Assembly: GCA_051294375.1 (NCBI GenBank)
Contig: CM119265.1
Coordinates: 14,794,963-14,858,962, forward strand
Direction: 5' to 3'
DNA: 64,000 bases
From: Paraspadella gotoi
Lineage: Eukaryota; Animalia; Chaetognatha
In this document: positions 3,987 to 48,062 of the stretch, piece after piece
How the letters are laid out: each line of letters opens with the position of its first letter
Position numbering within the stretch: position 1 is the stretch's first letter
The notes under the pieces: generated by a model
Databases searched by the model: none
Told to the model about the DNA's origin: nothing
Seen by the model: only the letters and a program-made list of their open reading frames with translations
Made by a program: the position numbers and the translations under genes

Positions 3987-4264
3987 TGTGATAAGGCGCT
4001 ACGTGGGCTGAAAGATGACTGTCCGTTAACTTCTATAACGCCCTCTAGCAGCCATGAACGGGTCCCCTGGCTTGGAACCAGGCTGAGGGTTTGCCATGCC
4101 CCAAGGCGGCTTACGGCCGTCCTCATGCTTCCTGCAGGGTATTTACTGGTGGGATTGAACCCGGTACCTGTGGTGATGGCTGATGGCTTTACTCAATGAG
4201 CCAGGGTCACAACTGAAAAGTGTCATGATTCTAGGCGGGGTGACCTAGGCAATGCCCGACTACA
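3987..4264 (-). mobile_element. solo LTR of tRNA/twister TRIM family 1
   Basis: Reverse complement of the LTRs at 26061-26749; TGTAG...TCACA termini; 4-bp TSD AATA (3983-3986, 4265-4268). Confidence 0.92.
4058..4135 (-). ncRNA. twister-like ribozyme (P5 type), partly degenerate
   Basis: Minus strand GCAGG-AA-GCAT-GAGGA-CGGCCG-TAA-GCC-GC-P3-CCTG-GTTCCAAGC-CAGG-GGA-CCCGT; mismatches in P2 and P5. Confidence 0.6.
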
Positions 4265-7669: not shown

Positions 7670-8107
7670 CGTGAGCGTTTTAGCTTAGTCTAATTCCATA
7701 AAATATAAGAAAGTTCGATGTCACAAAAGCGAGGTTTATTTTCAATTTCACATCAGCAAGAATAATAGGAGAAGTCAAAATTGCTCTTTCTTTTGTGAGC
7801 CTAGAAACTAGAATGTCTCACTCAAACAAAGTTTCTCTACTCTACTACAGTATTTGGTCCTTACCCCACCAAGTCCGGCCTTGTTCCATTGGCCCTTTTG
7901 CCAACCTCCCCAATCCTCTTCTTCCTTCCAATTGGCCCATGGCCTTTATTGCAGTCATAGAGTTTGGGTGAGGTCTTTGTTGTCCTGGTGAGGCGGGCCT
8001 CGGTTTCTGCTGGCTTGTGGTTCCGCCGAGAGTGGAGAGAGAGAGGGAGAGAGATGTAGGGGAGAGATGGCAGCTGGCTGCTGCATGCTCCTCGTGTTAC
8101 GTTTATG
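7670..8107 (-). repeat. 3' LTR
   Basis: Matches 18005-18446; immediately preceded on minus by PPT GGAGCGGGGAGG (8108-8119). Confidence 0.93.
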
Positions 8108-8157
8108 CCTCCCCGCTCCAGTCGGCGAAGACGGCGGGTTTATCCCGCCTTGCTGGC

Positions 8158-9997: not shown

Positions 9998-10345
9998 NNN
10001 NNNNNNNNNNNNNNNNTTTTTTTTTTTTTTTTTTGTTTCGAGCTTCGATCGATCCTTTGTTTTCGAGTGAATGATTTCTTGTTCATGGGCCTCTCTCCTC
10101 TGATTTCTCGTCGTTCGTTTTGTCGTCGTCGCTTCCCGGTTTTTCTCTTTTTCTCGTTCTCTCGCTTGTTCTGCCTCTCCTCTCTCTCTTCCTTTGGTAC
10201 GAGGGGAAAGGCGACGACGATGATGACGACGACGATGGTCATATTTGGATTTTCGATGATGATTTCTATTTTACTTGCTAAGACTAATTGTTTATTTATT
10301 TACACTATTGCCTTTTTTCTTTTTTTTTTGTCGGAGCTTCGCCTG

Positions 10346-13300: not shown

Positions 13301-15385
13301 TTCTTTATTTCTGCTACTAGAGTTTCTAACGCTGCTCGATGTTTTTCTTCGAATTTGAAGCTGCTTTTGTCAACTAAGGTCAGGGCATGGAGCGGTTGTG
13401 CCAGATAAGAGAAACGGTGGGTGAAGCAGCGGTAATAGTTTAGTGAGGCTAAAAGCGCGCGGAGGTCTTTTTGTGTTTTTACTTCCTTCAGTTTCACCTC
13501 AGCTTGTTCTAGCTTCTCTTTCTGGGGTTTGAGCTTATCCTGTGATATGCTGAAGCCTAAAATCTTGATGTCGTCCTTGCGTAGTAGGACGCTTTTTGTC
13601 CATTTGAGGACGACATTTTCGCGTCGGCAGATTTCGAGGAACTCTTTGAGTCGTTCCGCCATTTCCTCTGGCGTTCTTGCTGTCAGGATCAGATCGTCGA
13701 CGTAAATGAGAAAGCTTTTAACGTCGCGTCCGAGATCAGCAAAGATCTCGTCAAGGATGGCTTGGANNNNNNNNNNNNNNNNNNCGCCTCCCATTGGCAG
13801 CTTGTTCATTTGCCAGTTGTGTCCAGCGCCCGCGAAGGCGGTGACTGGTTTGCATCTATCCGACAGGTTGACTTGATGAAAACAAGCGAGAATGTCGACA
13901 GAGCATTGTAGCTCGTGGGGTTTGTATTCCTCGAGTATTGATGCAATCGTTTGAGGTTCTGTTGCAAATGTCGAGATATTGTCATTTACCGCTGATAGGT
14001 CGCATATGAGGCGCCACTGTTTCGCGAAGGTTTCGTCATCCATTTTCTCTTGATCTTTTGCGATGTGGTTTGGCTTTTTGATGAGGAATGCATTTGAGTA
14101 AGCTTCCCCGGAGGTTCTGGAGACGACTCCTGCTTTTTCGTATACCTCTAGGTATCTCTTGAGGGCGGCCTTTTTTACTGGGCCTTGATTTACAAATCGT
14201 GGCTTCGGTAGGTCCTCTGTGGTGAATCCAAGATCTACTTTGTAGTTTAAAAGCCCTCTTTGCAGTCGTTTATCGTTTCTCCAAATACATCGCGAAATTC
14301 CCAGACGGTTTCCCATACTATTGGGGCTTTGTCGANNNNNNNNNNATCTATTTCTTTAAATGGGCGTAAAAATTCCTCTTTTCCCCTGTCATCGTGTTTT
14401 TTTCTTCGTCTGTTTCTGGCTTNNNNNNNNNNTTTGATTTCAGCATCTGTAGGTGTGTGTTTTATTATTTTCGTTGGTGGGATATTTTCCTTCCTTACTC
14501 GTCTTAGTTTGGGACTCTGTCCACTTAGGTCCGCCTGGACTGGGCGGGCTGTGCACTCTGGATCTAAATTTAGTTCTATCGTTGCCTCTTCTGTAACGAC
14601 CAGCCTTGCCTGTCCCCATTCGCCTGGTTCGCCTGGTAGTTCCACGCCTGTTTTTAAATGTTCTCCGGCGATTGTGCAAGCGGTCTCCCCGTCTGTTGAT
14701 TGTAGCATCCATTTTGCTTCCGCTAACGATTTCCAATACGTCTTTGCTGCTCTTACTAGCGTTTTATTATTTTCAGTCTTTTCGGCGTAGAGTGGGATGA
14801 TNNNNNNNNNNTCAACGCATTGTCTTGCCAACCACCTTGCAGCTTTTAATGCTGACTGTTTGTCTTTGAACAGGTGGGTGATCGGCTTGCCGGCCATGTG
14901 CGCTACTTGGAGGCCTTGCTTTTCAGCTGGTGTGACTATCCACATTTCTTCCGCAGGTCCCGGGTCGGTCGTTGCCGTTCCTATGATGACGTCCCGGTCA
15001 TCCTCGTCTGGTGATATGAAGAAAGTAGTATCGAGGATCCAGTTTTGAAACATTACTCTCAGGTCTATGCGGTCGCGGATTGTAACAGTGCCGTTTCCGG
15101 TGGTTACGCGTAATGGTTGTCCTGAGTAAACTTTGCTTGCCATTGACCATTCATCGACAAATTTTCGAGGTATCGTGTTTATCGATGCCCCTGTGTCGTA
15201 GAGGCAGCTTGCTGGGGCTCCGCTAATTACTGCGGGGATGTAGCTGTTGCTGTTTAGGTTTATCTTCCTCTTAGTGTCATCCCTTGGTCGCGGTTTACCT
15301 TCGAGGCGAACTGTCGGGATGACGGTTCGGCTTTTGGTAGTGGGGGCGGTTCCATCTCGCCTTTTCTTTCTTCTGGCACCATAAC
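10346..15385 (-). CDS. pol: pol polyprotein: protease, reverse transcriptase, RNase H, OTU-like linker, integrase (split by gaps and indels)
   Basis: CLYDTGAS (~15185-15208), WRLICDL, LPMG, YVDD, ADAS, VTDS, NPADFLTR, HKKLGHPG..CDLC, CIDVMHLP, NRAERD, YTGPHQV; PR-RT-RH-IN order of Metaviridae. Confidence 0.95.
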
Positions 15386-17767
15386 TTCAGGTGTGAAAGT
15401 TTCTGGTTCGTGACATTGTATTTCAACTTTTCTTACTGTTGCTTGATGCATTGATTCGCCTCTGGTGTCGCTAATGATTGAATAGGTTGGGTTGTATATC
15501 ATTTTTCGGCATTTTACACTAGTTTGGATTAAGTTCGGCCTTAGTTTATTTGTTTGAGATTTTGTCTTTTGTTTTTTCTTTGGTGTCGGTGGCATTTCTA
15601 ATGGGAGCGTTTGCTCTTCACAGATGTCGCTGTTCGGTCCATTGGATTCCGGCGTTGACTTTTGTTTTCTTATTTGCCCTTTTTCATCGTTTCCCTTTTT
15701 CTCTGATTTTTTGCATAACTTTTTGCAAATCTTTAGCCTTTTTATAAATGCCTTCTTCTCGGCTAGCGCCCAGTTCTTCCAGGGTTCAAGGCTTTCTTTT
15801 ACAATGTTTAAGGCAAGACATTTCTTTTCGTTTTCGGCTAAAGGGCTGAAAAGTCTGTGCAGACGGACTGCTGCCGTTTTCCCAGTGAACTTTAGTGCTG
15901 CTTTTGGCACAGTTTCTCAGAGACTCTGTTTCTTTTACAGGCGCGGACTCCGTCGCCATCTGTTGGATGCATTTTGCTGCGGTCTGTGCTAACTCCGCTG
16001 CTTTCTTTCTTTCCTTAGAGGTACCTCTGTCTGTTTTCCTCGTTTCTATGGAATTGATATTGTACTTTTCATGGAATTTTATTTCATCACTGCAAACGCT
16101 TGTGTTATCATTGTCAACAATAACAAAATCTCTACGTCTTGTATCATATTTATTGAATCTAGGCTTTCCGCGGTAGGCCTTTTCTTTCCAACGGTTTTCG
16201 TCTCTTGTATCGCGGCGTTCGCGGCCGCGGTAATCTCGGGGTTNNNNNNNNNNNNNNNNTCGGTCGTCCTTCCTCTCGTCCTTGTCCTCCTTGTCCTTTA
16301 TCAATTTTGTCAGTTTCTCCAGTAGTTCTCGAGAGTTGTTTGCTTCCTGGAGCATGGTTCCTTGATAAAGGGCGTTCGCACTCTCTGCTGGGTTTTTGTC
16401 CGTAAGACCTTTTTGCAGTAAGGAATCGGTGAGGACCTGGCGATCGTTGTCCTTGACAGAGTTTATAAATCGTCTGCCTTTCGCTTCTTTTCCATGCGTC
16501 TCCAGCCAGCCNNNNNNNNNNCATTCGATTCTCCTTCCTAGCTCCTTCTTTCTGCCGCTTTCGATGTATGTTCTAAATTCCATGACTTCTCGGGCAATTC
16601 CTGGAGCATATGGGCTTAGTGCTTTCGTTAGCAGGCGGGCTGTGTGGCGTGGTACTGCGCCTCGGTCCTCCGNNNNNNNNNNNNNNNNNNNNCGGTATAT
16701 GGCGTTGACGAGTCCTAGCCCATACTCGGAATGTATCTCTGGGTCCACTTTCACCTCGATCTGGTCCGCGATCTCTGAAGCGCTGATCGAGGTTGTCTCG
16801 AAGACCTCGCATAATCCTTTGTAGAGGCTGCCTTCGACGGGATCAATGAAGCAGCTGGCTTCATAGTCCCTGGTGAAAAGGGCCTTTAGTTGCTCGTCGA
16901 TGATGCGGATGTCTATATCGCATCCGCGGAGAGATTGGTAGATTCCCCGTAGAAAGTCTGTTGGCTTTTCGTCCTCACGGCGTCGTTCGATTTTCACGGA
17001 ACCAGTTCGGGCGGCCATTGGTTCCATGAAAACTGCCGCCGCTGCGGCGCTCCTGGTCGAGTCTNNNNNNNNNNTAGATCTCTTGCCGTGTCCCTACTTG
17101 GGTTGCGTTCTGTTTTTCGGCAAGTCTCTCGTATCCCTGTCGGCCTCTCGGCGTTTGCTCCTTCCTGCAACATCGTTTTGATTTCGGCGATGTCAGTTCG
17201 GGCGCGGATGTTGTCCCTACTCATGGTGTTGACGGCGTTTGTGAGTTGNNNNNNNNNNATTCTGAGGTGTCTCATTTCTTCGCTCATTTGAATTGTGCTT
17301 TTCCTGTTCGCGTTGATGAGGCGCAGTATTTCACTGATTCCTTTTCCATGGTCGCCCTTCTTNNNNNNNNNNACTCTGCGGAGGTTGTCGCTCAAGTCGA
17401 GGTAGTGCAGGTTTTGGACGCCATNNNNNNNNNNTACTGCCGTTTCGCCGTTTATCTCCATTGAGCTGGGCATGGTGCCACCGACGGCTCCTCCTTCGGT
17501 GTCGGAGGCTACGTGGTCGTCCATTGTTAGGCGGCCCATGCTGCTCGCGATTTCGTCGAGGTTTCCGGTATTTGCGCCGGCGGTCCAGCTGGCGATGACG
17601 GCGGGTGCGTGCGTGGTCAGGCCGGTTGTTGGGTCCAGGTAGCAGCCTGTTATTCCGCCGCGTTGATCTTTGGCCGGGATTTGGGCTTTGTCGTTCGTTG
17701 GGGTGCCGATTGGGGCGGTGGGGTAGATCCCACTGCCTTCTGCGTTTTTTTCGTTTCTTGACGCCAT
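15260..17767 (-). CDS. gag: gag-like ORF1 (three overlapping ORF pieces, probably one long ORF)
   Basis: Lies between PBS and protease; coiled-coil-like, helical and basic segments; no clear CCHC knuckle. Confidence 0.7.
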
Positions 17768-17994
17768 TTGGGTGACTTTCCTAGCGATCTCGAACAAAGA
17801 TTTCGATTTCTTTGTTGGCTCAATTTTGCTGGTTTTAGTGAGTCCTCGTTTTCTTTTGCGTGTCGCGTTTCCGCTATCGAATGTTTTCGTTATTTTTTGT
17901 ATGGTAGCNNNNNNNNNNGCAACGTGGGGCGATTTCGATTTTCGATAAAAGTTTTTCTTTATTCGATTTTCGAAGAATTCTTTCGTAATCTTTT

Positions 17995-18004
17995 GCTGTC
18001 ACCA
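17995..18004 (-). promoter_or_regulatory. primer-binding site TGGTGACAGC
   Basis: TGG directly abutting the end of the 5' LTR. Confidence 0.85.
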
Positions 18005-18446
18005 CGTGAGCGTTCTGGCTTAGTCTAATCTCCGCGAAAATATAAGAAAGTTCGATGTACACAAAAGCGAGGTTTATTTTCAAATTAATCATCAGCAAGA
18101 ATATAGAGGAAGTCAAAATTGCTCTTTCTTTTGGAGCCTAGAAACTAGAATGGATCTCACACAAAGTTCTCTCTACCTTCTACCTCAGATGTTTGATCCT
18201 TAGCCCCACCAAGTCCCGGCCTTGTTCCATTGGCCCTTTTGCCAACCTCCCCAATCCTCTTCTTCCTTCCAATTGGCCCATGGCCTTTATTGCAGTCATA
18301 GAGTTTGGGTGAGGTCTTTGTTGGTCCTGGTGAGGCGGGCCTCGGTTTCTGCTGGCTTGCTTGGTTCCCGCCGAGAGTGAGAGAGAGAGGAGAGAGATGT
18401 AGGGGGAGGTGCAGCTGGCTGCTGCATGCTCCTCGTTACGTTTATG
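18005..18446 (-). repeat. 5' LTR
   Basis: Direct repeat of 7670-8107; AATAAA on minus at ~18073-18078. Confidence 0.93.
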
Positions 18447-18897: not shown

Positions 18898-19202
18898 TTT
18901 AAAAGGTAAAAAACAAAAGAATTCTAGTTGACTTTGAGATAAAACAGGCGTCCACGAGAAGGCCTTGAGGGCACCAAAAGGACGGGCTCAAATCATCACT
19001 TAAATTAAATTACTAAAGGTAGTTTCATGAAAAAAAAATTAATCGATACTCTCGGAAAAAAACTGCCAAAAATGAAGGTTAACTTTAAGTAAAGTGAAGA
19101 AGAATATATTTATACCGGGAGTTCTAGCTCTTTTCGGAAAAAGTTTAGGTTATGGCAACAGCCGGGTTGCCTGTGATGCCCATTGGGATGGGGCATCTCA
19201 CT

Positions 19203-19283
19203 GTTGGCTTTGGGGGCTTCCGACCCTCAGTGACGCCTCCAGTCACTGGCGCGGTTACCCTAGGACGGTCTCGCTTTGCCAAT
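19203..19283 (-). ncRNA. twister ribozyme, P5 type (3' LTR)
   Basis: TTGGC-AAA-GCGA-GACCG-TCCTAGGG-TAA-CCGC-GC-CAGTGAC..GTCACTG-A-GG-GTCGGAAGCC-CC-CAAA-GCCAA; T1 CGG:CCG, T2 GC:GC. Confidence 0.82.
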
Positions 19284-19688
19284 GCAGAGGGAAGTCGTTA
19301 GGACTGTGGATGGAACACTACGCCTGGGATGGTGTGTTCCCACTCTGAGCCAATGGATTTGGCTGACGGTTGGCGGACGTGAGGCGGTGTGAATATACCG
19401 CCACAGGATCCCCGGGCCAAGACATCACTCAGGTTCCTCAAGCCTGAGAGGTGTTTGACAAGACTGTTACCATAGTGGGAGAGGGAGAGAGCGTGAGTTG
19501 TGGGGGCATAGGCGTTTGTTGTAGCGTACCCCAGGGGCATAGGCGTTTGTCATAGCGTACCCGAAATCGTAGGGCATAGGCGTTTGTCGTAGCGTACCCT
19601 GAGAAGGTTGCGTGTTCGATAGTAGGGCTCACCACTTATGGCAACAGCCGGGTTGCCTGTGATGCCCATTGGGATGGGGCATCTCACT

Positions 19689-19769
19689 GTTGGCTTTGGG
19701 GGCTTCCAACCCTCAGTGACGCCTCCAGTCACTGGCGCGGTTACCCGAGGACGGTCTCGCTTTGCCAAC
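19689..19769 (-). ncRNA. twister ribozyme, P5 type (5' LTR)
   Basis: Same fold; L4 GTTGGAAGCC gives a U-G wobble in T1; P5 GTTGGC:GCCAAC. Confidence 0.8.
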
Positions 19770-19922
19770 GCAGAGGGAAGTCGTTAGGACTGTGGATGGA
19801 ACACTATGCCTGGGATGGTGTGTTCCCCCTCTGAGCCAATGGATTTGGCTGACGGATGGTGGACGTGAGGCGGTGTGAATATACCGCGACAAGGTACTTA
19901 AATCTCAAGAGCGCTTTGAGAT

Positions 19923-20892
19923 AAAACAAGTTTGAGCAAACTATGTCGGATCTGCCCACGATCATTAGCGGTAATTAATAATTAATACAAACTATATAAA
20001 CTAAAATAATAATTCAATTAATAAATTAATTAATTTGATCCAAAATGTTTGTTTTTAGGTTTTTTCGGCACTGACCACGACAAAAGCAATGACGACGATG
20101 ATGGCGACGACGATAATAATTCCGATAACGATTGACTTGATTGATTGGTTAAATAATTAATTAATTTATAAATAAATTGATTTATTTATTTAATAATTAA
20201 TTAATAGATAACTAAATAAATTGATTGATTGAATAATTATTTGCTTGATTAATGACCGATAAATTAATCATTTATTAATTAATTGACTAATTGATTAATT
20301 AACTGATTAATTATTTGATTAATTAATACATCTTGCATTTACATTTAATATAAAAAGAAAAAGAAGCATAATCATAATCAATTAGTGAAAAAGGTTTTTT
20401 TTTCCATTTAAACTCATTTCCACTCAGATGATTCCATCGAAACTTGATCTCCAGCTTAATCACACACTTTCCTACCCACATACAAAATTTCAAGTCCATC
20501 GCCCCATCCACTCATGAGTAATTGACGTTCAAATAGTGAAATAGATTTTTTGTTTTTTCCATTTAAACTCATTTCACTGGCACGATTCCATCGAAACTTC
20601 ATATCCAGCTCAATCACACACTTCTCTATCCACATACAGAATTTCATTCCAATCCATTCATCCAATCACGAGCAATTGGAGTTTTTTGCTAAGGTGGAAC
20701 GGACGGACAGATGGACGGATGGATGGATGGACGGACAGACGGACATCGTTTTTTTTTGTATAATATATTATAATTTGATGTTTTGACTTGATATAAGTGA
20801 ATGCCCGACAAGATTGAGGGGGCGGACCGATGGACCGACAAAGTGAATAATAGAGTTGGGATCTGCTGATAAGCAGATCCGACTAAAAAAAA
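19923..20892 (-). mobile_element. HINE/DINE-1-like non-autonomous Helentron derivative
   Basis: Minus strand: T run, subterminal IR GTCGGATCTGC with adjacent palindrome, GTCC microsatellite, distal GCAGATCCGAC, stem-loop AGTTTG-CT-CAAACT, TGTTTT end. Confidence 0.85.
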
Positions 20893-21591: not shown

Positions 21592-21699
21592 TAACCGCGC
21601 TAGAGGTATGAGGTGCTGCTGAGGGTACGAAGCCCGCAACGCCAACAGGTGATATGCCCCACCCAGCTTGGAATCACAGGCAACCCAGATGTTGCCATA
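21592..21699 (+). mobile_element. 3' half of a diverged family-2 TRIM LTR
   Basis: TAACCGCGC...CTGAGGGTACGAAGCCC...ATCACAGGCAACCC...TGTTGCCATA aligns to the family-2 LTR 3' half. Confidence 0.8.
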
Positions 21700-21896
21700 A
21701 CATAATTTTGATAAAAAATAGTGTAATATTTATATTAGTACATGCAGAGGAGAGTTAAAACAAGAAACGGCAAATTCAACATAATGCACCGAATTAACTT
21801 TCTTATTGCATTTTCAGATGATCACTTGATTATATATAAATATAATATAGCATATTAAACCACAAAAAAAAAAGATTAAAAAATTTAAAAATATAT

Positions 21897-23022
21897 AAAC
21901 AAGTTTGAGCAATGTTGGATCTTCCCAGGATAATTAAGCGGTAAACAGCTAAATAAATAAACAAATAAATATTAAATAAATACTATAGTAGAAATAATTA
22001 CAAATTAAGTACAAATAAATTTTTCAACTATTATTTTTTTTTCAACTTGCATACTTTTTTTCAACTCTCATCATTTTTTTCAACTCACATCATTTTTTTC
22101 ACTTCGCATCATTTTTTTCAACTCGCATCATTTTTTTCAACTTGCATCATTTTTTAACTTGTATCTTTTTTTTCAACTCGCATCATTTTTTTCAACTTGC
22201 ACCATTTTTTCAACTCGCATCATTTTTTTTCAACTTGCATCATTTTTTTCAAATTGCATCATTTTTTTACTTAATTACTTAATTTATTAATTAATTAAAT
22301 AATTAATTAAAACATTCATGATTGAGCATAAATAATAAAAATACAAGTCAACTTGTCTTTGGTATTTTTCCATGCAAACTCATTTCCACTCCTTGATTCC
22401 TTGATTGATTAATTGACCGATTAGTTAATTATTTATTAATTGACTAACTGATTAACTAACTGATTAATTATTTGATTAATTAATACATCTTGCATTTACA
22501 TTTAATATAAAAAGAAAAAGATGCATAATAAATTAGTAAAATAGGTTTTTTATTTTTTTCATTTAAACCCATTTCCACTCAGACAATTCCATCGAAACTT
22601 GATTTCCAGCTTAATCACACACTTTCCTACCCACATACAAAATTTCAAGTCAATCGCCCCGTCCACTCATGAGTAATTGGCGTTCAAATAGTGAAATAGA
22701 TTTTTTTGTTTTTTCCATTTTAACTCATTTTCACTTGCACGATTCCATCGAAACTTCATATACAGATCAATCACACTCTTCCCTACCCCTCATTCCAATC
22801 CAACCATCCAATCATGAGTAATTGAAGTTTTTTGCTAAGGCGGGACGGATGGAAAGACATACGGACGGACGGACGAACATCATTTTTTTTGCATAATTTA
22901 TCATAATTCGATGTTCTGACATGTAATAAGTTAATGCCCGACAAGATTGAGGGGACGGACCGACGGACTGACAAAGTGAATTATAGAGTCGGGATCTGCT
23001 GATAAGCAGATCCGACTAAAAA
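21897..23022 (-). mobile_element. HINE/DINE-1-like element, second copy, with internal ~20-bp minisatellite (22040-22270)
   Basis: Same termini and ~600 bp shared with 20220-20890. Confidence 0.85.
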
Positions 23023-23318
23023 CTTGCCAATAAAATATTTAGTTTAATTCTAATCTCAATGGCTTCGAAGCAGAAATACAACGGCAAAAGGTATAAATTA
23101 GGTCGTACACAGAGACAAAAGACGCACTAACTGATCAAAAAGTGGCTTAGAGTTGGTCTGTAAGTACTAGCATTAAAACTGATTAAAAACATAATCGTTA
23201 TGATTAGTTATTTTTTTCGAATTGCCCGAAAAATAAGTAAAATAACTTTTTTTTCATTAAAAATATATTAAATCATAACAGTACCTGTATTAACTTTATC
23301 TCATTTACTTCTAAAAAC

Positions 23319-25956
23319 CTTCAGAAAATCCAGGAATTGGTACAGGAATTTGTGTGGAAGATCCTGTATTATTTGAGATCGTTGCTGTAGGACCTGAAGC
23401 ATTGGTAGTCGGTAAAGCTCTTGACTTGTTTGATGCCGAAAATGAAGTTAAAGGTAAACTTCCATTTGTCCAAGTTGTTGTGCTTCTTTGGGTTAAACCA
23501 GAAACTGAATGTGAAGAGAAAGTAACAGTAGTGGATGTATTAGAAATCTTGGTTGTATTTCCCGGGTTTAAAGTGGATTCCATTTGGGATGAAGAAGTTG
23601 ACAATGATGAGGGTAAACTTTCTTTAGCCGCACTGGATGACTTAGAGGGTTGGATCGGTGGTCCAGTTGATATTGCTGGAGAAGTAGTATTGCTAGTCGT
23701 TTTAGTTGTGCTTTCAGCAGATTTTATTGTGGTTGTCTTGTTTGAATGAAAGCTTGATGTAAAGTAGCCTGTGGTACCTGTCTTTGGCGTAATGGAAGTG
23801 TTTGAACTGGTTTTTGTGTAGGTTGAAGTAGGCAACGATGTGTGTAAACTTTCATTAGCTGATCTCGATGACTTAGAGGATTGGGTTAAAGGTACAGTGG
23901 AGATTGTTGTTGGAAAGGAAGTATTACTAGTCGTTTTAGTAGTGCTTTCAGCAGGTTTTTTTGTGGTTGTCTTGTTGGCTAGCCCTGAAGTTTTTGAATG
24001 AGAGCTTGAAGTTGAATTAAATTTGCTTGTCGTACCTGTCATTGATGTGTTGGAAGGTTTGGAAGTGGTTACTGCTTGGGATGAAGATGGAGGCAATGAA
24101 GATGAAACACTTTCATTAGCTGATGTAGATGACTTAGAGGGTTGGGTTAAAGGTACAGTGGAAAATGTTATTGGAAAAGAAGTATTACTAGTCGTTTTAG
24201 TAGTGCTTTCAGCAGGTTTTATTGTGGTTGTCTTGTTGGCTTGCCCTGAAGTTTTTGAATGAGAGCTTGAAGTTGAATTAAATTTGCTTGTAGTACCTGT
24301 CATTGATGTTTTGGAAGGTTTTGAAGTGGTTACTGCTTGGGCGAATGCAATGACATGCGAGGCTAATGAACGCATAAAACACTTTCATTAGCTGATGTAG
24401 ATAACTTAGAGGGTTGGGTTAAAGGTACAGGAGGAGATTGTTGTTGGAAAAGAAGTATTACTAGTCGTTTTAAGTTGTGCTTTCAGCAGGTTTTATGTGG
24501 TCGTCTTGTTACCGAGCCCATAGAAGTTGGAATAGTAATGAGACCTAGTTTAATGTGTGAAATAAATTTGCTTGTAGTACCTGTCATTGATGTTTTGGAA
24601 GGTTTTGAAGTGGTTACTGCTTGGGATGAAGATGGAGGCAATGAAGATGGAACACTTTCATTAGCTGATGTAGATAACTTAGAGGGTTGGGTTAAAGGTA
24701 CAGAGGAGATTGTTGTTGGAAAAGAAGTATTACTAGTCGTTTTAGTTGTGCTTGGCCGACCGATACTTCATCAAACAGTTAGGGGCTTAATAGTACATTT
24801 TCTAATGAAGAAAGAAGCTATATACTTAAGTCGTATTTAGTTTTGTGCTTTCAGCAGAGTTTTTATAGTGGTTCGTCTTGTTAGACCAGAGACCCGCGCG
24901 TGAATCAGTTGGTTAAAGAATGAGAAGCTGAAGAAGATACTCGAAAAAATTTAAATTTGCTTGTAGTACACAAATGAAATATTTCTGGCGAGGTATGCCA
25001 GTATGAAAAGCGTTCTAAATAAGTCTGGGTTTTCCGACCCTCTGCATGGGTGAGACCTGAAGTTGAAGTTTTAGAAGTTGTTTCTATTTGAGTTGAAGAA
25101 GTATGCAATGAAGAGGGAACACTTTTATTAGCTGATCTAGATGACTCAGTGGGTCGGGTTAAAGGCACAGTGGAGATTGTTGTTGGAGATGTAGTGTTAC
25201 TAGTCGTTTTAGTAGTACTTTCAGCAGGTTTTATTGTGGTTGTCTTGTGGGTGAGACCTGAGGTTTTCCATTTAGAGCTTGAAGTAGAAGTAAATTTAGT
25301 TGTACTACCTGTCTTTTCTGTATTGGAGGATTTTGAAGTTATTTCTATTTGGGTTGAAAAAGTAGGCAATGATCCAGATGACTGAGAGGGTTGGGTAAAA
25401 GGTACAGTGGAGATTGTTGTTGGAGATGTAGTGTTACTAGTCGTTTTAGAAGTGCTTTCAGCAGGTTTTATTGTGGTTGTCTTGTTGGTGAGACCTGAGG
25501 TTTTGAATTCAGAGCTTGAAGTAGAAGTAAATTTGCTTGTACTTCCTGTCTTTGCTGTATTGGAAGGTTTTGAAGTTGTTTCTATTTGGGTTGAAGATGG
25601 AGGCAATGCTCTAGATGATTGAGAGGGTTGGGTTAAAAGTACAGTGGAGATTGATGTTGGAGTTGAAGGTTCAGTGAATATTGTTGTTGAAGTAGGATTA
25701 TTGGTAGATTTCATCGTAGTTTTCACTGTTTTTAACGAGGTAATCTTGCTCGCTGGCCTAGAAGTTTGAGAATGAGTGTCTGTGAGTGATAGTGACGAAG
25801 TAGAGTGTTTCAAAGTTGGATCTTCTTTGGTTGAATAAGTAGGTAATGACGAGGATAACAATTTTGAATTAAAAGTTTGGGTTGTATTTAATGTAGTTTT
25901 CTCAGTGGTTTGATTTTCCGAAATTTTCATACGCAGATGACGTTTTTCTTCAGTCT
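23319..25956 (-). CDS. mucin-like PTS exon with ~230-260-bp repeats (frameshifts probably assembly errors)
   Basis: Thr/Ser/Pro-rich ORFs 23311-24375 and 24905-25930 with many NxT/S sequons; acceptor ttctcag| at 25957; phase matches the upstream exon; donor uncertain. Confidence 0.8.
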
Positions 25957-26115
25957 CTGAGAATCAAATGAAAGTAAATTTTATAATAAGGTGATTATTG
26001 TACATGAATAGTTCAAAAAAGCTTTTCTTTTAAGCCTTACTATTTTTAATTATCTAGTTATGTAGTCGGGCATTGCCGAGGTTCACCCGCCTAGAATCAT
26101 GACACTTTCAGTTGT

Positions 26116-26187
26116 GACCCGGTGGCTCATTGAGTAAAGCCATCAGCTCACGACCACTAGGTACCGGGTTCAATCCCACCCGGTACC
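26116..26187 (+). promoter_or_regulatory. tRNA-derived Pol III type-2 promoter in LTR (second copy ~26520-26593)
   Basis: A box TGGCTCATTGAG, B box GGTTCAATCCC at tRNA-like spacing; cloverleaf degenerate, so not a functional tRNA. Confidence 0.75.
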
Positions 26188-26193
26188 TTCCCT

Positions 26194-26272
26194 GCGGGAA
26201 GCGTGAGGACGGCCATAAGCCGCCTTGGGGGCATGGCAAACCCTCAGCCTGGTTCCAAGCCCAGGGACCCGT
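26194..26272 (+). ncRNA. twister ribozyme, P5 type (5' LTR)
   Basis: GCGGG-AA-GCGT-GAGGA-CGGCCA-TAA-GCC-GC-P3-CCTG-GTTCCAAGCC-CAGG-GA-CCCGT; T1 TCC:GGA; P2 short and bulged. Confidence 0.75.
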
Positions 26273-26599
26273 TCCATGGCTGCTAGAGGGGGTTATAGAA
26301 GTTACGGACAGTCATCTTCAGCCCACGTAGCGCCTTATCCACACTGGTGAGCCCATCCTGTCGAGCGTATTCCAACCTTCTGATTCCAGGCCCTTGGTCT
26401 AGCTGAAGATTGCTCCCCTCCCTTCACTGGAAGCAGTGCAGGGTGGGTTACAATCTGGGGGGCATGTAGTCGGGCATTGCCTAGGTTCACCCGCCTAGAA
26501 TCATGACACTTTCAGTAGTGACCCGGTGGCTCATTGAGTAAAGCCATCAGCTCATGACCACTAGGTACCGGGTTCAATCCCAACCCAGGTACCTACCCT

Positions 26600-26679
26600 G
26601 CGGGAAGCGTGAGGACGACCGTAAGCCGCCTTGGGGGCATGGCAAACCCTCAAGCCTGGTTCCAAGCCCAGGGACCCGT
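26600..26679 (+). ncRNA. twister ribozyme, P5 type (3' LTR)
   Basis: Same fold; P1 CGACCG; P3 CTTGGGGG:CCCTCAAG. Confidence 0.75.
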
Positions 26680-27561
26680 TCCATGGCTGCTAGAGGGGGT
26701 TTAGAAGTTACGGACAGTCATCTTTAGCCCACGTAGCGCCTTATCCACAGTTATACACTTATAAATATAAAATAGTATTGAATCTGTTAATTTAATTTGG
26801 TTTGTATGCCAAAAAAATATAAATAATACAGTTATTTCCTGAGTAAGTATGATTCTATAAATCATATTGTTCTGAGACCACATAATGTCAATTTTTTTTT
26901 AAAATTAATAACATCAAAAATTATTTAAATAAATTTGGTTGTAATAGTAAAACTAATGTTGTCATGAGACATGCCATTACACTTTCTTATAATTAAAAAT
27001 ATATTTTGATAAAAATGCTGTTTTTAAATCAAATTAAAACCATTAGTCATTAACATAGATTAGTTTTTTTTAATGTTACCATCTTGATTCTATTTTATTT
27101 TGTAGCTGATATGTGCTATAGTATCATTCTTGATATGAATTAAAATTCTCTTAAAAACAGGTCAATGATTTCTGAATATATTGAGTGGTGCTGATGAGTT
27201 GCATGATTTTCAGTAATAGCAGCCAAATTTACCCCGTATCCATGTAATGCAAAAGATTTATAAACAAATTTATTTTTAGGTGCTTGTAACCCAGATTAAA
27301 CCTAATAATATAGTTAAAGTATACTCATGTGCATAAAAAACGCGCTACTTTATAATATTAAATTCCAAAAGCTTCTTATACTTTTATTCTATTTTTATTT
27401 TAAAAATTATATAAAAAAATTAAAGCTTTTTTCAAAAAAGAATCAATCGGTCAAGTAGTTTAAGAGATGTTTTTTTAAACTTCAGTGTTCAAAAAAAATT
27501 GAATAGTTATATTTTATTTAAAAGCTTCAGAATCATTGACCTGTAATTCCTTTTTTTTAAC

Positions 27562-29950
27562 CTGATCTGGAGGTTGTGGTTATCTCTAGTTTTGTAGAAG
27601 TAGAAGCTTTAGAAGTTGTACTAGTTTTTGATGGTGTGGATGATGTTGTTCCAGAATTTACAGTTTGAGTTGTTCCTTTAGATCCTAAGGTAGTGGTTGT
27701 ATCTGGTTTATTGGAAATTGTAATTGGATAGGTTGTACTCGTCTTTAATGATGTGGATAATGTGGTTCCAGAATAGATAGTTTGAGTTGTTCCATCAGAT
27801 CCTCTGGTTGTAGATATTTTTGGTTTAGTAGAAGTTGTACGAGTGTTTGATGGTGCTGGTGATGTGGTTTCAGAATATACAGTTTGAGTTGTTCCTTCAG
27901 ATCGTGAAGTCGTACTTGTGTTTGATGGTACTGGGGTCGTGGTAGTGGTAGTGGTAGGATTAGTTGTTTCAGAATATACAGTTTGTGTTGTTCCTTTAGA
28001 TCCTGTAGTTGTGGTTACATCTGGGTTAGTGGAAATAGAAATTGAAAAAGTTGGACCAGTGCTTGATGGTGTGAATGACGTACCTCCAGAATGTACAGTT
28101 TGAGTTGTTACATTAGATCCTGTAGTTGTGGTTATAGTGGAAATAGAATTTGGAGAAGTGGTACCAGCATTAGATGATGTGAATGTTGTCGCTTCAGAAT
28201 GTACAGTTTGAGTTGTTACATTAGATCCATGGAGTTGTGGTTATATTTGGGTAGTAGAAAATAGAATTGGAGAAGTTGTACCAGTGTTTGATGGTGTGGA
28301 TGAAGTAGCTCCAGAATGTACAGTTTGAGTTGTTACATTAGATCCTGGAGTTGTGGTTATATTTTGGGTTAGTAGAAATAGAGTTGGAGAAGTTGTACCA
28401 GTGTTTGATGGTGTGGACGTTGTAGCTCCAGAATGAACAGTTTGAGTTGTTACTTAGATCCTGGAGTGGTGGTTGTATTGGGTTAGTATAAATAGAAGTT
28501 GGAGAAGTTGTACAGTGTTTGATGGTGTGGATGATGAGCTCCAGAAAGACAGTTTGAGTTGTTACATTAGATCCTGGAGTTGTGGTTATATTTGGTTAGT
28601 ATAATAGAAGTTGGAAAGTTGTTCCAGTGTTTGATGGTGTGGATGTAGCTCCAGAAAGTACAGTTTGAGTTGTTACATTAGATCCTGGAGTTGTGGTTAT
28701 ATTTGGGTTAGTAGAAATAGAAGTTAGAGAAGTTGTACCAGTGTTTATGGTTGTTGGATGATGTAGCTCCAGAATGTACAGTTTGAGTTGTTACATTGAT
28801 CCTGGAGTTGTAGTTATATTTTGGGTTAGTAGAAATATAAGTTGGAGAAGTTGTACAGTGTTTGATGGAGTGGATGATGTAGCTCCAGAATGTACAGTTT
28901 GAGTTGTTACATTAGATCCTGGAGTTGTGGTTATGTGTTGGTTAGTAGAAATAGAAGTTGGAGAAGTTGTACCAGTGTTTTGATGGTGTGGGATGATGTA
29001 GCTCCAGAATGTACAGTTTGAGTTGTTACATTAGATCCTGGAGTTGTGGTTATATTTGGTTAGTAAGAAATAGAAGTTGGAAAAAGTTGTACCAGTGTGT
29101 TGATGGTGTGGAATGTTTGTAGCTCCCAGAATGTACAGTTTTGAGTTGTTATATTAGATCCTGGAGTTGTTTATATTTGGGTTAGTAGTAATAGAAGTTG
29201 GAGAAGTTGTACCAGTGTTTGATGGTGTGGATGATGTAGTCCCAGAATAAACAGTTTGAGTTGTTACATTAGATCCTGGAGTTGTGGTTATATTTGGGTT
29301 AGTAGAAATAGAAGTTGGAGAAGTTGTACCAGTGTTTGATGGTGTGGATGATGTAGCTCCAGAATGTACAGTTTGAGTTGTTCCATTAAGATCCTGGAGT
29401 TGTGGTTATATTTTGACTTAGAAGAAAAATAAGTTGGAGAAGTTGTACCAGTGTTTGATGGTGTGGATGATGTAGCTCCAGAATAAACAGTTTGAGTTGT
29501 TACATTAGATCCTGGAGTTGTGGTTATATTTGGGTTAGTATAAATAGAAGTTGGAGAACGTTGTTCCAGTGTTTGTTGTTGTGGATGATGTTGCTCCAGA
29601 ATGTACAGTTTGAGTTGTTACATTAGATCCTATAGTTGTGGTTATATTTGGGTTAGTAGAAATAGAAGTTGGAGAAGTTGTACCAGTGTTTGATGGTGTG
29701 GATGAAGTAGCTCCAGAATGAATTGTTATATTAGATCCTGTGGATGTGGTTACAGAACTTAATGTTGTTCCAGTATTTGTAGTTGATCCATTTTTTTTAG
29801 CAATAGTTGGAGTGGTAAACACTGAAGAAGTATTAAATGGAGAGGTTTTAGTTTTTCTGCCAGATGCTGAACTTGTAGTTATATTTGGTTTGGAAGAATT
29901 TCCTGATATTCCTTCTGAAGTGGATGTTAACATTGTTGTCGAAGAGGTAG
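27562..29950 (-). CDS. mucin-like PTS exon with 117-bp (39-aa) tandem repeats
   Basis: Acceptor tttacag| at 29951, donor |gttaaa at 27561; about 13-14 repeats encoding GSNVTTQTVHSGATSSTPSNTGTTSPTSISTNPNITTTP, with indel noise. Confidence 0.8.
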
Positions 29951-30189
29951 CTGTAAATGAAAAATTTAATTTGAAAAACACCATTATTTTTATCATGTCG
30001 ATTAGGAAAATACCTGATGAATCTCTTTTTAAGCCAAAAATTATCAAAATTATTTGCTATTGTTATAAATAATTGTAAGCAAAATGATTGTATAGTGGCT
30101 TGAGTTTGTTAAATTCAGTTGTACGAAATTATCTCAATGTATAGAAAATGTTTATTATTGATGATTATTAAAAACTTCTTTAGCTTCGA

Positions 30190-31769: not shown

Positions 31770-32030
31770 CGCATAATCACACAAAATTTCATTCTAATCC
31801 ATACCTCCAATCACGAGTAATTGGAATTAAATGCTAAGGGGGACGGATGGACGAACGGACGGATGGGCAGATGGATAGAGAGATAGACGGACCTCATTTT
31901 TTTGCACAATTTATCATAATTCAATGTTCTGATATGATAAAAATAATTTACTGACAAGATTTAGGGTGGGACCGACGGACCGACAAAGTGTATTATAGAG
32001 TCAGAATCAGCTATAAGCAGATCCAACTCA
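31770..32030 (-). mobile_element. HINE/DINE-1-like partial copy (another remnant at ~33540-33650)
   Basis: Homology to 20620-20885. Confidence 0.75.
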
Positions 32031-32050: not shown

Positions 32051-32927
32051 TTTTTATCGAGCCTACCGGCGAAGCCGGTTCAGGCTCGATTATTGATTCA
32101 GGTCAGCTTCTTTGTGACGTCGTCGTCATCGTCGTCGTCGTCGGCGTCACGCTTTTTTGTTTAAAAACTAGTAAGTAAGTTAAAAATTTAGATATGGCTT
32201 CTCATCTTAAAATAGCTTTGATATTTTCTTATTACATTTGGATTTAAGTATTTTTTGTTTGAATTTCTACTTCATTATGATTTACTGCAATATGCAAATA
32301 AGATTATAGTACTCATTATAATATCCAAATTAGTATATAGAAATGCTTTAATCTAATTTACATATTGCAGTATATAATATTGAAGATGAAATTAAAAAAA
32401 AAATTTTAAATCTATAATAAAAATGGAAAATCAAAGGACCTTTTTAATGAGAAGCTATATCTTAATTTTAATACAAATAAAAATAAAATCTTTCACAAGC
32501 TATGATTGGAAAAAATTGTAACAATTTCCAATTGTAAACATTTTTTTTCCTTTCTTTTATACCTTTAAATTATATATATATATTTTTTTGTCAGTTGCTG
32601 CCTCTTCTGAACCCTTTAAAAACGAGTTCAGGCTCTGCAGTGATTGTTCAACTGCCTTCCAGCGGCTGTCCAGCTTTCTCTCTTTCTCTCTCTGTCTCTG
32701 TCTGTCTCTTTCTGTCTCTCTCTTTCTGTCTCTCTCTGTCTCTGTCTCTCTCCCTCTCTCTGTACGATCTCTTGCGTGATCATTTTTTGAAAAATTTTGA
32801 TTATTTTTTTCCTTTTAAAAACTTTTATTATCGCAATTTATTCTGCGCTTTTTTCTCAATGCAAAATCCCAAATTTACATCCGAGATTTTTGTGGATTTA
32901 TTTTCTTTCTTTCTCTCTCTCTTTCTT

Positions 32928-33220: not shown

Positions 33221-34101
33221 ATTTGTAGTTGTTGTAAGTTTATGATGACAGTAGTCTTATTCTTGCAGCATACAATGCATACATACTAAAGCGTAGCAAA
33301 AATATTAAAATCAAGTTTAATCAAAATTTGAATAGTAGATCATGAACTGCCTTGTACCTGTAAACATTTTTAAATAAAAAAAAGTTATTTTTTTATTTTT
33401 CAATATTTATACATAGTACTCACCATAAAAAAGGTTACATTTTTTAAATGTTTTTTTCTTATCTTTGAAAGCAGATTTGAATTCCTCACGAAAAGTTGAT
33501 AAAAGGAAATATAACAGTCAAAAAGATGGACATCATTTATTGTAATTCGATGTTCTAAGATGATCCTAGTGATTTACTTTCAAGATATTGGGGTGGGACC
33601 GACGGAATAAAAAGTGGAATAAAGAGTCGGGATCTGCTAATAAGTTGTCAGAAACCATATTTTTAGTCGCGCCGCGGGTAATGACTAAAAAACTATTAAT
33701 CAGTCAGTCCCACTTACATTTATAATGTCTAAACGCAATGTAGTATTGTTTTATTTAAGTTAATAATCCGAAGGAAACATGGACACGTTAACAAAATGTC
33801 ATTTTCGCACAATCATGAAAAATTTAAAATATTTCATACTTGTGTATGAGTCAATGTTAATGCGGTACAACACCTACCGAATATTGCCATAACTTGTTTA
33901 CTCACTGCAAAGTTTTTTCATTAGAATTTTTAACAAATTGAACGCCACACCTGACCGAAAGCTTCAGGAAAATTACTTTAAAGAAAATTCTCTTCATTAT
34001 TTAAAATTAAATTTAAACGCAAAAAAAGAGATTCATAAAAAAGAAACTGCGTCCTAATGAAGAATATCACTGAGCATATTTAGCATTCCTCGTTCAATCT
34101 A

Positions 34102-37100: not shown

Positions 37101-39581
37101 CCATTAGTTTAAAACTATATTCCTTGTTTGACTTACATAATGTAATTATTTTGTCTCTCCCGTTTCTTCTCTCTCCTCTCTCTCTAGCATCTTTGTGTTT
37201 AAATTGAGAAAAGGACATTTGTTGATTGTGTTGTTTTGATTTAATCACAGTCTTCATCAGCACTCTATTCCATCGAAGCTGTATATCCAGCTAAATAACA
37301 CATTTTTTACACTTAACATATACAATTGTCTTTCTTTCTTTCTTCTTTAATTATCTTTTCTTCTTTTCTTATACCTTTTTCTTTTTTTCCTATATTTTTC
37401 TTTTTCTTTTTTCCTTTCTTTCTTTTTACTTCTTTACTGTCAATATATCTGTAGTGATTAAACAAATATAAAGAAAGCAAAAAAAATTCAATCTGTGACC
37501 CTCATTGTTATCGCCATTGAGATACCTATGAAGCCCAAAAAAAAAAGAACGTTTTGAGAGAGAGAGAGAAGAGAAGAGAGAGGAGAGGGAGAAGAGAGAG
37601 AGAGAGAGAGAGAGAGAAGTAGGCCATTTCATCGTCCCAGTCAAGAATTGGGTACGGGGATTTGCGGAATATATCCCCGGCGAAGACCGCCGCAGGCGTA
37701 AGGTTGCGGTGAACATATAGTTCTCTTCCCCGAAACTGCGCGAAAGCTAACAGTCTTAAACTGCGAGGATATGAGCCCGACGTAATAATTCTTTTATATT
37801 CTCTCAGTTGCATCGCATATCAAGAACTAGTAACTAAACTGAACTTTGAACAGTCCTCACTGAAAATTCCTCACGGAACAGTCCATAGACAGTCCATTCA
37901 TACGAGACACTTTTCCAGTGAGCCGCTCACGCAAACTCAGGCCTCGCCTCGCACCCGCGTTCCAGGCCAGAGTCGTGATGAGTCGCTTCCGTCGAAGGTG
38001 AATCTCGTGGCCGACGGAATTGTCGGTGATGACGAAGAAATCGTTGGGGGGACACTTGGTTTCCGTCGTCATGGGGCTGCTAAGCTCGTGACGGGGACAG
38101 AAGGCGTTGAGCCAAGGGTTCGACGTTTTCAGGAACTCTTCCATCAGCTTTTTGTCTGCCTTTCTCATCTGTAGAGTGACGAAGGAATGGGATATTTACG
38201 AGAAAAGTGTTAGTTGAACGGATGTAATTAGATAACTTTGGATAGATAGATCTATGAATCTTTTAAATCTTAGCTTTTCAAACTTATAAACTGTCTAAAC
38301 GTGGAGACAAATCCTCATGCCAACCCCGTTCCTCACTGTGGGTTCTTCCTGCAATTCCACGATGTCTTTTTTCGAGATCTGTTCCCTGAGTGGAATCCCG
38401 AATATCGTTTGCCCATTGGTCACAAAGAAGTAGAACCGCGGATCGTCGCAAAGGCCGGTCGGCTTCCGTTGATTCGTCTGCCTTAGATGAAAAACAAGTT
38501 TTTAATGAACGTTTCCTAGTGGCCACTCGAAGCAAGGACGATGCCTCATGTGCCAGGTGCAAAATCTCTTGCAAGTTGCCAGCGTGCACTTGGCGTTGAA
38601 TGTTTCCCCTTTGGCCTGCTTGATGATTCTCGTCTCCAAGACGGTGGTGTCCTTCCGCTGAAGCAATTCGTTGATGATGTCCAGTTTGTGCTTCTCGTCT
38701 TCCCATGTCAACTCTCCGTCAAAGTCGAGGCATTGGCGGAATCCTCGGGCGTCCGTCACGGGGTCCTCCGACTGTTCGCAACCGTAGGGTTTCCAAATGT
38801 CCTCGTGCTCTGAAAAGGAGGTAAGGAAGAGCAGAAAATTATGGAAGATGGAGAGTGGCGAGTGAAGAGGTTAAATCGATCTTTCGTGCGGTTATCTATT
38901 ATCAGTCAATTGTGGCGGTATATTCAGTTATTCACACCTCCTCAGTGCGCCTCACATCCACCATCGTTCAGCAAATCCCATTGGCTCAGAGGGGAAATGC
39001 ACCATCCCAAGCTTTACGTTCCCTCCTATAGACTTCCCTCTGCGTTGTCAAAGCGAGACCAGACCAGACCAGACTGCGCCAGTGATAGATGGCGTCACTG
39101 AGGGTCGGAAGCCCCCAAAACCAATAGTGAGATGCCCCATCCCAGTGGGCATCACAGGAATACAATGACGAGTAGTGTGGTCCATTTTCCACTGGCCCCT
39201 AAACGGTTTTGTAGAGGAAGAAGATGTCGTTTTCGTCATTGTCTACGAGGTCGTCGTCTTATTGACCCTCGAGTCTGACCACTCGGGTAAATCGGCGCTG
39301 GAAGCATCGGTACTTCCGGTTTCAAACTGAAAAGGATGAGAAGGATGATGCCAAGAATTCCGGCGAGAACGCCGAGAGATCCGACCACGAAGTTCATGCG
39401 ACGGACGTCCTGAAAGGTAGTGGTCAGTATTTAATTTTAAATTCAAGGTGTCGTTGATGCAACGGCGACGAGGATCACCGCTAATGGAATCACAAACCTG
39501 TTCTTTGGCCGCGTGACGCAAAGACGCCGTCTTCGAAACGGAACCGGAAACAGATATGGAAGAACTCTCTCGAATTGTCAC

Positions 39582-43858: not shown

Positions 43859-43907
<49 letters not shown>

Positions 43908-44088
43908 TCTCTTTCTCTTCCTCTCTTCTTCTAAGAAAATTTATTTCAAAAGAGAATTCGTTATTTAATTAATTATTTTCTTTTTCCGTAATCAACTGGC
44001 CTATTTTCTTCATTGTCTTTCAAATTCTATAACCAAACAGTTTTGACTCCTCCCTACTTCAATTGCGGTTTTCAACATGCTTATGACA

Positions 44089-44174
<86 letters not shown>

Positions 44175-45069: not shown

Positions 45070-45569
45070 TAGCAACTCCTCTCTACTCTCTCTCTCCTCT
45101 CTCCCGGTCTCTACTCTCATTCTCTCTCTCATCTCTCTTCTCTCTCCTCCCTCTCTCTCCTCTCGTCTCTCTCTCCAAAAGCCGAAGGTAGTTATGAAAA
45201 AAAATGTGAGAAAAGCTCTTCAGCGCCGAGTTGTTTCCCGTCAGTTCGACTCCGACGGTTTTTTTTTTTGTTTTGAAGAAGAAAAACGTAATAATATAAC
45301 GCGATTTTTTTTTTCTTCCGCGTAAACAGAAACAAATTATAAGTTGACTCCGACAGAGAGAGAAAAAAAAAATAAAACTGCGCTTTGTCGACTTTTCCCG
45401 TTTCGACTTTAAGTTGGCGCGGGGGTTTTTTCACTACTACCGACGACGGACGATGGCGACGACGACGGACGACGACGACGACGACGAAGTCGTCGTTTTT
45501 CGAAGACGATTTCCTAGTTTTCTTCGTTTTTGGTTTCACATTTTCTCATCCATATCCATCTTTTATCCA

Positions 45570-47803: not shown

Positions 47804-48062
47804 TGTGGATAAGCGAAGTTAGCGACAGATGACTCTCCGCGCAAATTCTTAAACCGCTCCTCTTGCGCAGCCATGGAACGGGTCCCTTGTCTTGGAACCA
47901 GGCTTGAGGTTTTCCACGACCACCAAGGAGGCTTACGGCGTCTCTCACCTCCCGCAGGGTACGGTACCGGGTTGGGATTGAACCGGCTATCCCAACGGTC
48001 ATGAGCTGATGCATACTTCAATATGAGTCACGTCACGACTGAAGCGGGTGAACTTATGCAAT
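47804..48062 (-). mobile_element. diverged family-1 TRIM solo LTR
   Basis: tgtggataag...gcagccatggaacgggtccc..cttggaaccaggc...gggattgaacc...catgagctgatg aligns to family 1; right end uncertain. Confidence 0.85.

Follow-up and report, generated by a model that had tools for sequence, protein, structure and literature searches.

A 64,000-nucleotide stretch of the genome of the chaetognath Paraspadella gotoi (NCBI GenBank assembly GCA_051294375.1, contig CM119265.1, positions 14,794,963 to 14,858,962 of the forward strand; the window, numbered from its first letter) contains, at 26061-26749 on the plus strand, a 689-bp non-coding element with two long terminal repeats (LTRs), each of which very probably, judging from its sequence, carries a twister ribozyme. 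We call the element and its relatives family A, a terminal-repeat retrotransposon in miniature (TRIM). The 5′ LTR (26061..26343, 283 bp) and the 3′ LTR (26465..26749, 285 bp) both run from TG to CA and align with 275 identities, 7 mismatches and 4 gaps. Between them lies an interior of 121 bp that opens with one base followed by TGG, the start of the primer-binding site (PBS; 26345..26356), and closes with a G run, a short polypurine tract (PPT; 26457..26464) that abuts the 3′ LTR. The target-site duplication GTTA (4 bp) flanks the element at 26057..26060 and 26750..26753, and 4-bp duplications were found at three insertions in the window (GTTA, TATT and ACCT). The LTR alignment and the flanks bear out an earlier account of this DNA made from the letters alone (the sequence-only reading), which had described a 689-bp non-coding element with TG...CA ends, PBS, PPT and GTTA duplication. 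The PBS, shared with a second element described below (family B; 19625-19634, minus strand), is one that we take to resemble the 3′ end of a tRNA and the anticodon arm of the initiator tRNA-Met alike.

Family A is a large, high-copy repeat family. In sequencing run X1, 6546 contigs align to a 1-kb stretch around the element, and the depth, which is not a copy number, rises to as much as 1.5 million on the element vs 245 on the flank. The copy at 26061-26749 sits in AT-rich DNA between minus-strand open reading frames (ORFs) that are Ser/Thr-rich and repetitive. These tandem-repeat ORFs (23311-30056, minus strand) belong to a mucin-like gene; the element is antisense to it, with a consensus splice acceptor (near 25958) some 100 bp away, and probably lies antisense within an intron.

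The predicted twisters of family A are in the P5-open order with a P3 stem and occupy 26194..26272 in the 5′ LTR and 26600..26679 in the 3′ LTR, both on the plus strand. The conserved GA falls at 26205 and 26611 and the UAA at 26216 and 26622; helices P3, P4 (4 bp) and P5 are recognisable, the pseudoknots T1 (GGA:UCC) and T2 (GC:GC) are complementary in both LTRs, and the catalytic bases are all intact. In a pseudoknot-free ensemble, P5, P3 and P4 pair at probabilities of 0.6-0.95. The P1 segments lie at 26210-26215 and 26616-26621, and the predicted cuts, between 26216 and 26217 and between 26622 and 26623, bound the interval 26217..26622, from which double cleavage would release a 406-nt monomer. 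GA, T1, UAA, T2 and P3-P5, as well as the 406-nt interval, were thus found where the sequence-only reading had placed them. High-throughput work on natural twisters indicates that flaws in P1, P2 and P4 are tolerated and that pseudoknots and catalytic bases are sensitive (PMC11662667); the parts reported there as sensitive are those intact in family A. We consider it highly likely, from the sequence, that the predicted family A twister is catalytically active. For comparison, natural twisters were parsed from loci L001-L030 (29 rows, including duplicated loci and about four mis-parses): P2 is 3 nt long in 17 rows, and T1 is GGA:UCC in 8, a count that is uninformative on other T1 types since the pattern that fetched these twisters restricted T1.

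Variation within the family was read from the contigs of two runs aligned to 26575-26700, with substitution rows taken at 1% of depth or more and contigs less than 80% alike excluded. It amounts to 12 substitution rows and one deletion, the latter in a G run adjacent to P4. The row present at 98% of the depth makes P1 fully palindromic, and the family state was defined from it. The other 11 substitutions leave every pair and every core base intact: 6 fall on unpaired bases, and the remaining 5 preserve the pairs they affect, three of these by replacing G-U with A-U or G-C in P2 and P3. At the 6 CpG sites there are 3 pair-keeping or neutral C>T changes and no pair-breaking G>A change. With a null matched for mutation type, 45 of 200,000 draws held no breaking change (P about 2e-4), a value to be read with caution, as the test uses depth-weighted contigs of related subfamilies and the 11 changes are not fully independent. 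The variation of family A keeps the twister fold, and the identification proposed by the sequence-only reading gains family-wide support.

Searching the window for the family A PBS led to family B (19151..19891, minus strand), a 741-bp TRIM with 255-bp LTRs (247 identities, 8 mismatches), the duplication ACCT, TG...TA ends and A/B-box-like motifs. Its PBS starts at 19634, and the first 10 PBS bases are the same as in family A. Predicted twisters lie on the minus strand in its 5′ LTR (19690..19768; cut between 19743 and 19742; T1 with one G-U wobble) and 3′ LTR (19204..19282; cut between 19257 and 19256; T1 CCG:CGG, an 8-nt palindromic P1, a 7-bp P3 and a 5-bp P5). T2 is GC:GC, and the predicted monomer measures 486 nt. 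The conserved twister bases (GA, U^AA and, in L4, GU-NNN-AA-NN-C) occur in order in both LTRs of both families. Because MAFFT misaligned A with B, the stems were compared by parsing: P1, P2, P3, P4, P5 and T1 differ in sequence between the families yet pair in both. Homology of the LTRs outside the ribozyme is unsupported, as their likeness is no better than that of shuffles (the 5′ score is reached in 319/1000 and the 3′ score in 1000/1000). Because this likeness is not significant and a covariance model trained on four family A copies recovers those four only, not family B, we regard family B as another instance of this design, either deeply diverged from family A or of independent origin. 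Two dissimilar TRIM families with a covaried predicted twister at the same LTR position are independent support for the twister reading. Neither the family B element nor the palindromic P1 was part of what the sequence-only reading had found. The family B interior (231 bp) holds three tandem copies of a unit of about 32 nt, each folding into a hairpin, and its PPT is weak.

Several other copies of the two families in the window are decayed. A family A solo LTR (3987..4264, minus strand; 91% identical) has its own duplication, TATT, and an intact P1 palindrome, alongside flaws in P2 and P5. A diverged family A LTR (47804..48062, minus strand; 78%) has a contiguous 3-bp P2 and a double change in T2 that keeps pairing, together with damage in T1, P1 and the top of P4; as this copy is 22% diverged with T1 and P4 broken, the double change was given little weight as compensatory evidence. 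Family B is further represented by a decayed LTR (38912..39158, plus strand), in which the P1/UAA region is replaced by a short repeat, and by a 3′ fragment of a diverged LTR (21592..21702, plus strand) that starts at UAA and ends in CA.

We also applied a twister descriptor in which only the twister bases are fixed and the pseudoknots must be complementary, its leniency having been set after the elements were seen. It gives 3 matches in the 64-kb window, all in TRIM LTRs, with a mean of 0.075 in 200 block shuffles (0.03 with P5 of at least 4 bp). The descriptor recovers 3 of the 8 known LTR copies in the window, and a looser form recovers 4 of the 8, plus 2 matches outside TRIMs. No hammerhead family occurs among the Rfam matches at E <= 10, and the LTR motif is of the twister type.

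A number of results weigh against the twister reading, beside the failure of the family A covariance model to find family B. The covariance-model search that the sequence-only reading had put forward as a check fell short: Rfam Twister-P5 (RF02684) scores only 15.5 and 16.1 bits on the family A LTRs (E 2.5 and 1.9), far below the gathering threshold of 37.6, and is not among the 17 Rfam matches at E <= 10 in the scan of the whole window; on a 101-nt family A stretch E is 0.2. The printed model lacks a P3 hairpin, and the family A P3 enters the alignment as an insertion. The family A P2 is imperfect, with 3 pairs and a bulged C, and its pair probability is 0.04-0.07 in the pseudoknot-free ensemble. 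In family B a C.A mismatch closes P2 and an A.C mismatch lies in P4, the lowest-energy fold contains only P5 of the twister scaffold, and one LTR gives a partial match to the Rfam twister-P1 model that is not significant (15.2 bits). The P2 and P4 flaws are common to the copies within each family.

The twister of the 5′ LTR is preceded by a tRNA-like RNA polymerase III (Pol III) promoter region (26123..26176, plus strand), with an A box at 26123-26134. The sequence-only reading had assigned A and B boxes to each LTR, and this holds fully for the B box, which is canonical (GGTTC) in both (26166-26176 and 26570-26580). The A box (26123 and 26527; 43 nt upstream of the B box) keeps TRGCY and lacks the YGG end, so that its final GG is missing, and a strict A-box regular expression does not match it. 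ARAGORN reports no tRNA in the promoter region, and the best Rfam match over the boxes, an end-to-end match to a plastid family with an antisense-tRNA-like consensus, is not significant (E 0.41 and, in the 5′ LTR, 0.77). In family B, box A is complete in the 3′ LTR and box B is a variant; these departures from consensus, in the A box for family A and in the B box for family B, count against the interpretation set out below. Because of the absent ARAGORN tRNA and the non-significant Rfam match, Pol III use by family A is something we infer; from the boxes, it is probable that Pol III initiates some 10 nt ahead of the A box. Between the boxes, at 26551-26557 (plus strand) and at the matching site in the 47804-48062 copy, there is a 7-nt stretch resembling an anticodon loop, with CAT at its centre (CAC in the 5′ LTR); it hints at a tRNA-Met ancestor, and the flanking stem is degenerate. 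The sense strand of the element has no TTTT, as the sequence-only reading had stated, and the first T4 run downstream is at 26892, outside the LTR. TTTT is likewise missing in 453/1000 and 850/1000 shuffles, and because 453/1000 shuffles also do without it, its absence, though true, carries no evidential weight.

P1 is a loop-less palindrome of 6 nt in family A and 8 nt in family B. Only 1-2 bp are possible in cis, where there is no fold, and the duplex energies of the intact palindromes are -10.7 (A) and -11.0 (B) kcal/mol. With the outer pairs granted and equal base use, an inner 4-nt palindrome is expected by chance in 1 of 16 cases per family and in about 1 of 256 for both. In the natural P5-order twisters that we parsed, the P1 segment is a hairpin of 16-38 nt; two rows with 9-10 nt are mis-parsed P1-open ribozymes. 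Axolotl hammerheads offer an analogy, having one base pair and a palindromic tetraloop, cleaving better as dimers and being circularised by RtcB in vitro (PMC7229834). On this analogy the two LTR ribozymes may pair through their palindromic P1 segments as a swapped dimer, a prediction that we put forward tentatively, as having slightly less than an even chance. Two points count against it. In the 26061-26749 copy the P1 of both LTRs departs, by a change private to each, from the perfect palindrome of the family majority, and the two segments pair at only -2.7 kcal/mol, vs -10.7 when intact; this copy may therefore be a weaker member of the family. In addition, because P1 has been reported to be dispensable (PMC11662667), a dimer is not necessarily required, and a circle could re-cut itself.

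Taken together, we lean slightly towards the interpretation that family A is a twister-based LTR retrozyme, likely with a Pol III promoter, which releases a 406-nt monomer for circularisation. Pol III would start a little before the first A box and transcribe across both LTRs, and both twisters would cut, freeing the 406-nt RNA with 5′-OH and cyclic-phosphate ends. P5 and P2 would pair the ends of this monomer and hold them for ligation, a host ligase would close it into a circle, and a Gypsy-type reverse transcriptase would copy the circle. Reverse transcription from the PBS would cross the circle junction and rebuild a whole LTR without a first strand transfer; the doubly cut linear monomer could not make the usual first strand transfer because it has no terminal repeat. 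We hold it slightly more likely than not that both LTRs are cut and that the 5′-OH and cyclic-phosphate ends are then ligated. It is a point against the circle that retrozyme monomers are strongly paired (PMC4918200) and the stability predicted for the family A circle does not exceed that of shuffled sequences (68% paired, z -0.84, 60 shuffles); the predicted family B monomer is 56% paired with z -2.16 (60 shuffles). Speculatively, and less likely than otherwise, the families could represent a natural superfamily of twister/Pol III/RtcB circle factories, in which transcription would be driven by a tRNA-derived promoter, a half-swap through the palindromic P1 would favour cutting only once both LTRs are made, P5 and P2 would clamp the ends, and the lone ribozyme of the circle would be too weak to destroy it before the Gypsy-type reverse transcriptase has acted. 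The long Gypsy-type element in the window was considered as an autonomous partner and set aside, as its PBS differs from that of the TRIMs.

The alternative that survives best, unlikely though to be taken seriously, is that an active twister serves to form the 3′ end of a linear RNA: Pol III would start near 26115, cleavage would occur mainly in the 3′ LTR, and the transcript, with a terminal repeat of about 100 nt, would undergo ordinary strand transfer with no circle. The element has no T4 run before 26892, beyond the LTR, and for this reason something must define the RNA 3′ end; the unremarkable stability of the predicted circle (z -0.84) is also in keeping with a linear RNA, and cutting might be held back if P1 can pair only after synthesis of the second LTR. 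However, the two ribozymes hardly differ in sequence and P1 is reportedly dispensable, so that some further mechanism would be needed to leave the 5′ site uncut. From a symmetric dimer one would also expect cleavage at both sites, as is seen with double hammerheads (PMC7229834).

We judge it improbable that an ordinary TRIM, moving as Helenus-type elements do, took up into its LTR a short interspersed element (SINE)-like unit made of a tRNA head and a twister, the ribozyme being a passenger that is now weak or silent. Helenus LTRs have been proposed to originate from SINE insertion (PMC10886601), the P2 and P4 flaws run through the copies of each family, and several window copies are decayed; nevertheless, a passenger would be expected to erode, whereas 0/11 family-wide substitutions break the fold and complementary pseudoknots are kept in two dissimilar families. 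GC-rich palindromes of this kind are reminiscent of retroviral dimer-initiation loops. That the twister likeness is accidental, or a conserved packaging or dimerisation signal that does not cut, is very improbable, for although the Rfam scores are at chance level and the descriptor was tuned on elements already seen, its looser version adding matches outside TRIMs, the fixed bases (GA, UAA, GU...AA..C) and two pseudoknots stand in the right order in two dissimilar families, vs 0.03-0.075 matches per shuffled window.

The retrozyme interpretation places family A between two known kinds of element: from its sequence, its mode of action would be that of an LTR retrozyme and its architecture resembles that of Helenus, without the hammerhead of the first and with a ribozyme added relative to the second. 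Plant LTR retrozymes have a hammerhead in each LTR, 4-bp duplications, a PBS, a PPT and circular RNAs, for which a circular-template model has been proposed (PMC4918200; Cervera, Urbina, de la Pena 2016). Family A shares with them the non-coding nature, the two LTRs, the PBS, PPT and 4-bp duplication, solo LTRs, one self-cleaving-type ribozyme per LTR (predicted in family A) and an inter-cut monomer as proposed circular template (PMC4918200). It differs in that families A and B have a twister instead of a type III hammerhead and A/B boxes in the LTR, and in that the monomers are 406 and 486 nt vs about 600-1000, with circles observed in plants and predicted from sequence here (PMC4918200). The label of twister-based LTR retrozyme given by the sequence-only reading is accordingly favoured by the fold-keeping variation and the covaried family B, while the hammerhead that marks described LTR retrozymes is absent and the Rfam scores are sub-threshold.

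With Helenus (TRIMp3; Kojima 2024; PMC10886601), families A and B share a size below 1000 bp (689 and 741 bp), a PBS, a PPT and the animal-type 4-bp duplication; their LTRs also have box motifs that agree in part with the tRNA-derived segment of Helenus LTRs (box A TRGCY...YGG, box B GGTTC). Animal Helenus elements are described as having 4-bp duplications, which those of the window match, and as being mobilised by Gypsy elements, and Pol III transcription of Helenus is itself unvalidated (PMC10886601). Unlike Helenus, family A has about 170 bp with a predicted ribozyme after the B box (PMC10886601). The word "twister" is absent from the main text of that paper, and a search of its supplement for 18 short motifs, where line breaks can hide a motif, gave neither family A nor a twister-like context, and no counterpart of the PBS common to families A and B (PMC10886601). 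The Perere-3/RTE twister is likewise tied to a retroelement and has P3 directly between T2 and P4 (PMC8501958), but it is P1-open and occurs once, at the 5′ end of a non-LTR element that is autonomous and has no LTRs, PBS or paired ribozymes (PMC8501958). Metazoan non-LTR retrozymes with dimeric hammerheads resemble family A in combining a minimal stem with a palindrome (PMC7229834), and differ in having hammerheads and tandem repeats and no LTR, PBS or PPT (PMC7229834). RNAs circularised by RtcB after twister cleavage, also from a Pol III promoter, have been engineered (10.1101/2023.07.11.548538). As in family A, two ribozymes of this Tornado system flank the RNA, whose ends are joined by RtcB, and a Pol III promoter is usable; unlike family A, it is artificial, has a designed ligation stem and is not a mobile element (10.1101/2023.07.11.548538). 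In the titles and abstract openings of the literature searched, with some result lists seen in part and Repbase outside the scope, there was no twister in an LTR element and no natural dimeric twister, in agreement with the sequence-only reading, which knew of no twister-bearing LTR elements.

Family-specific twister patterns had no match in metagenome or viral contigs, and 39 matches in prokaryote genomes were rejected as chance-like, as none (0/39) has the L4 loop downstream. A generic short-P1 pattern gave 1 viral and 29 metagenome loci, mostly ordinary twisters with a hairpin P1; none of these loci lies in an LTR-sized direct repeat, the longest self-match being 111 bp. BLAST of the family A and B elements against 69 pattern-matched loci gave no match. 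Two or three twisters, 0.4-1.2 kb apart and without LTR-sized repeats, occur in metagenome contigs L024 (3 copies), L006/L020, L009, L010, L017, L019 and L028, and locus L013 has a type II hammerhead as well.

Elsewhere in the window, a search of its 76 ORFs against Pfam gave retroelement domains only. Protein searches added one reverse transcriptase relative and, among longer proteins, no integrase relative; in the Atlas they led to a eukaryotic cluster whose single member of known phylum belongs to Arthropoda, a weak pointer to that group. A long Gypsy-type element (7670-18446, minus strand) has LTRs 91% identical and protease, reverse transcriptase, RNase H and integrase in broken frames; within it, an ORF at 8527-10299 has a sub-threshold match to a Monjiviricetes fusion glycoprotein. 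It interrupts or adjoins a truncated second Gypsy-type element (about 4350-7669, minus strand), with an integrase domain at 5692-7455 and, near 4630, an LTR and a G-rich tract. The long inverted repeats at 32183-32469, 43862-44156 and 49060-49274 are hairpins or resemble miniature inverted-repeat transposable elements (MITEs), and two of them have sub-threshold Rfam matches to miRNA precursors. Dispersed repeats of no assigned class, 75-86% identical, are found at 20241-20889, 22401-23022, 31778-32028 and 33531-33644, and at 45081-46433 and 61911-63360.

LTR retrozymes have been described with hammerheads in plants, and the one retroelement role of twister documented in the literature examined is at the 5′ end of non-LTR elements. 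If the retrozyme interpretation is true, the route from ribozyme to circle in LTR retrotransposition would not depend on the hammerhead and would extend to an animal host. It would also suggest how the RNA ends of a Pol III-driven LTR element without a terminator are defined, and would provide the first candidate for a natural dimeric twister. The twister, whose biological role is mostly unknown, would thereby gain a concrete job.
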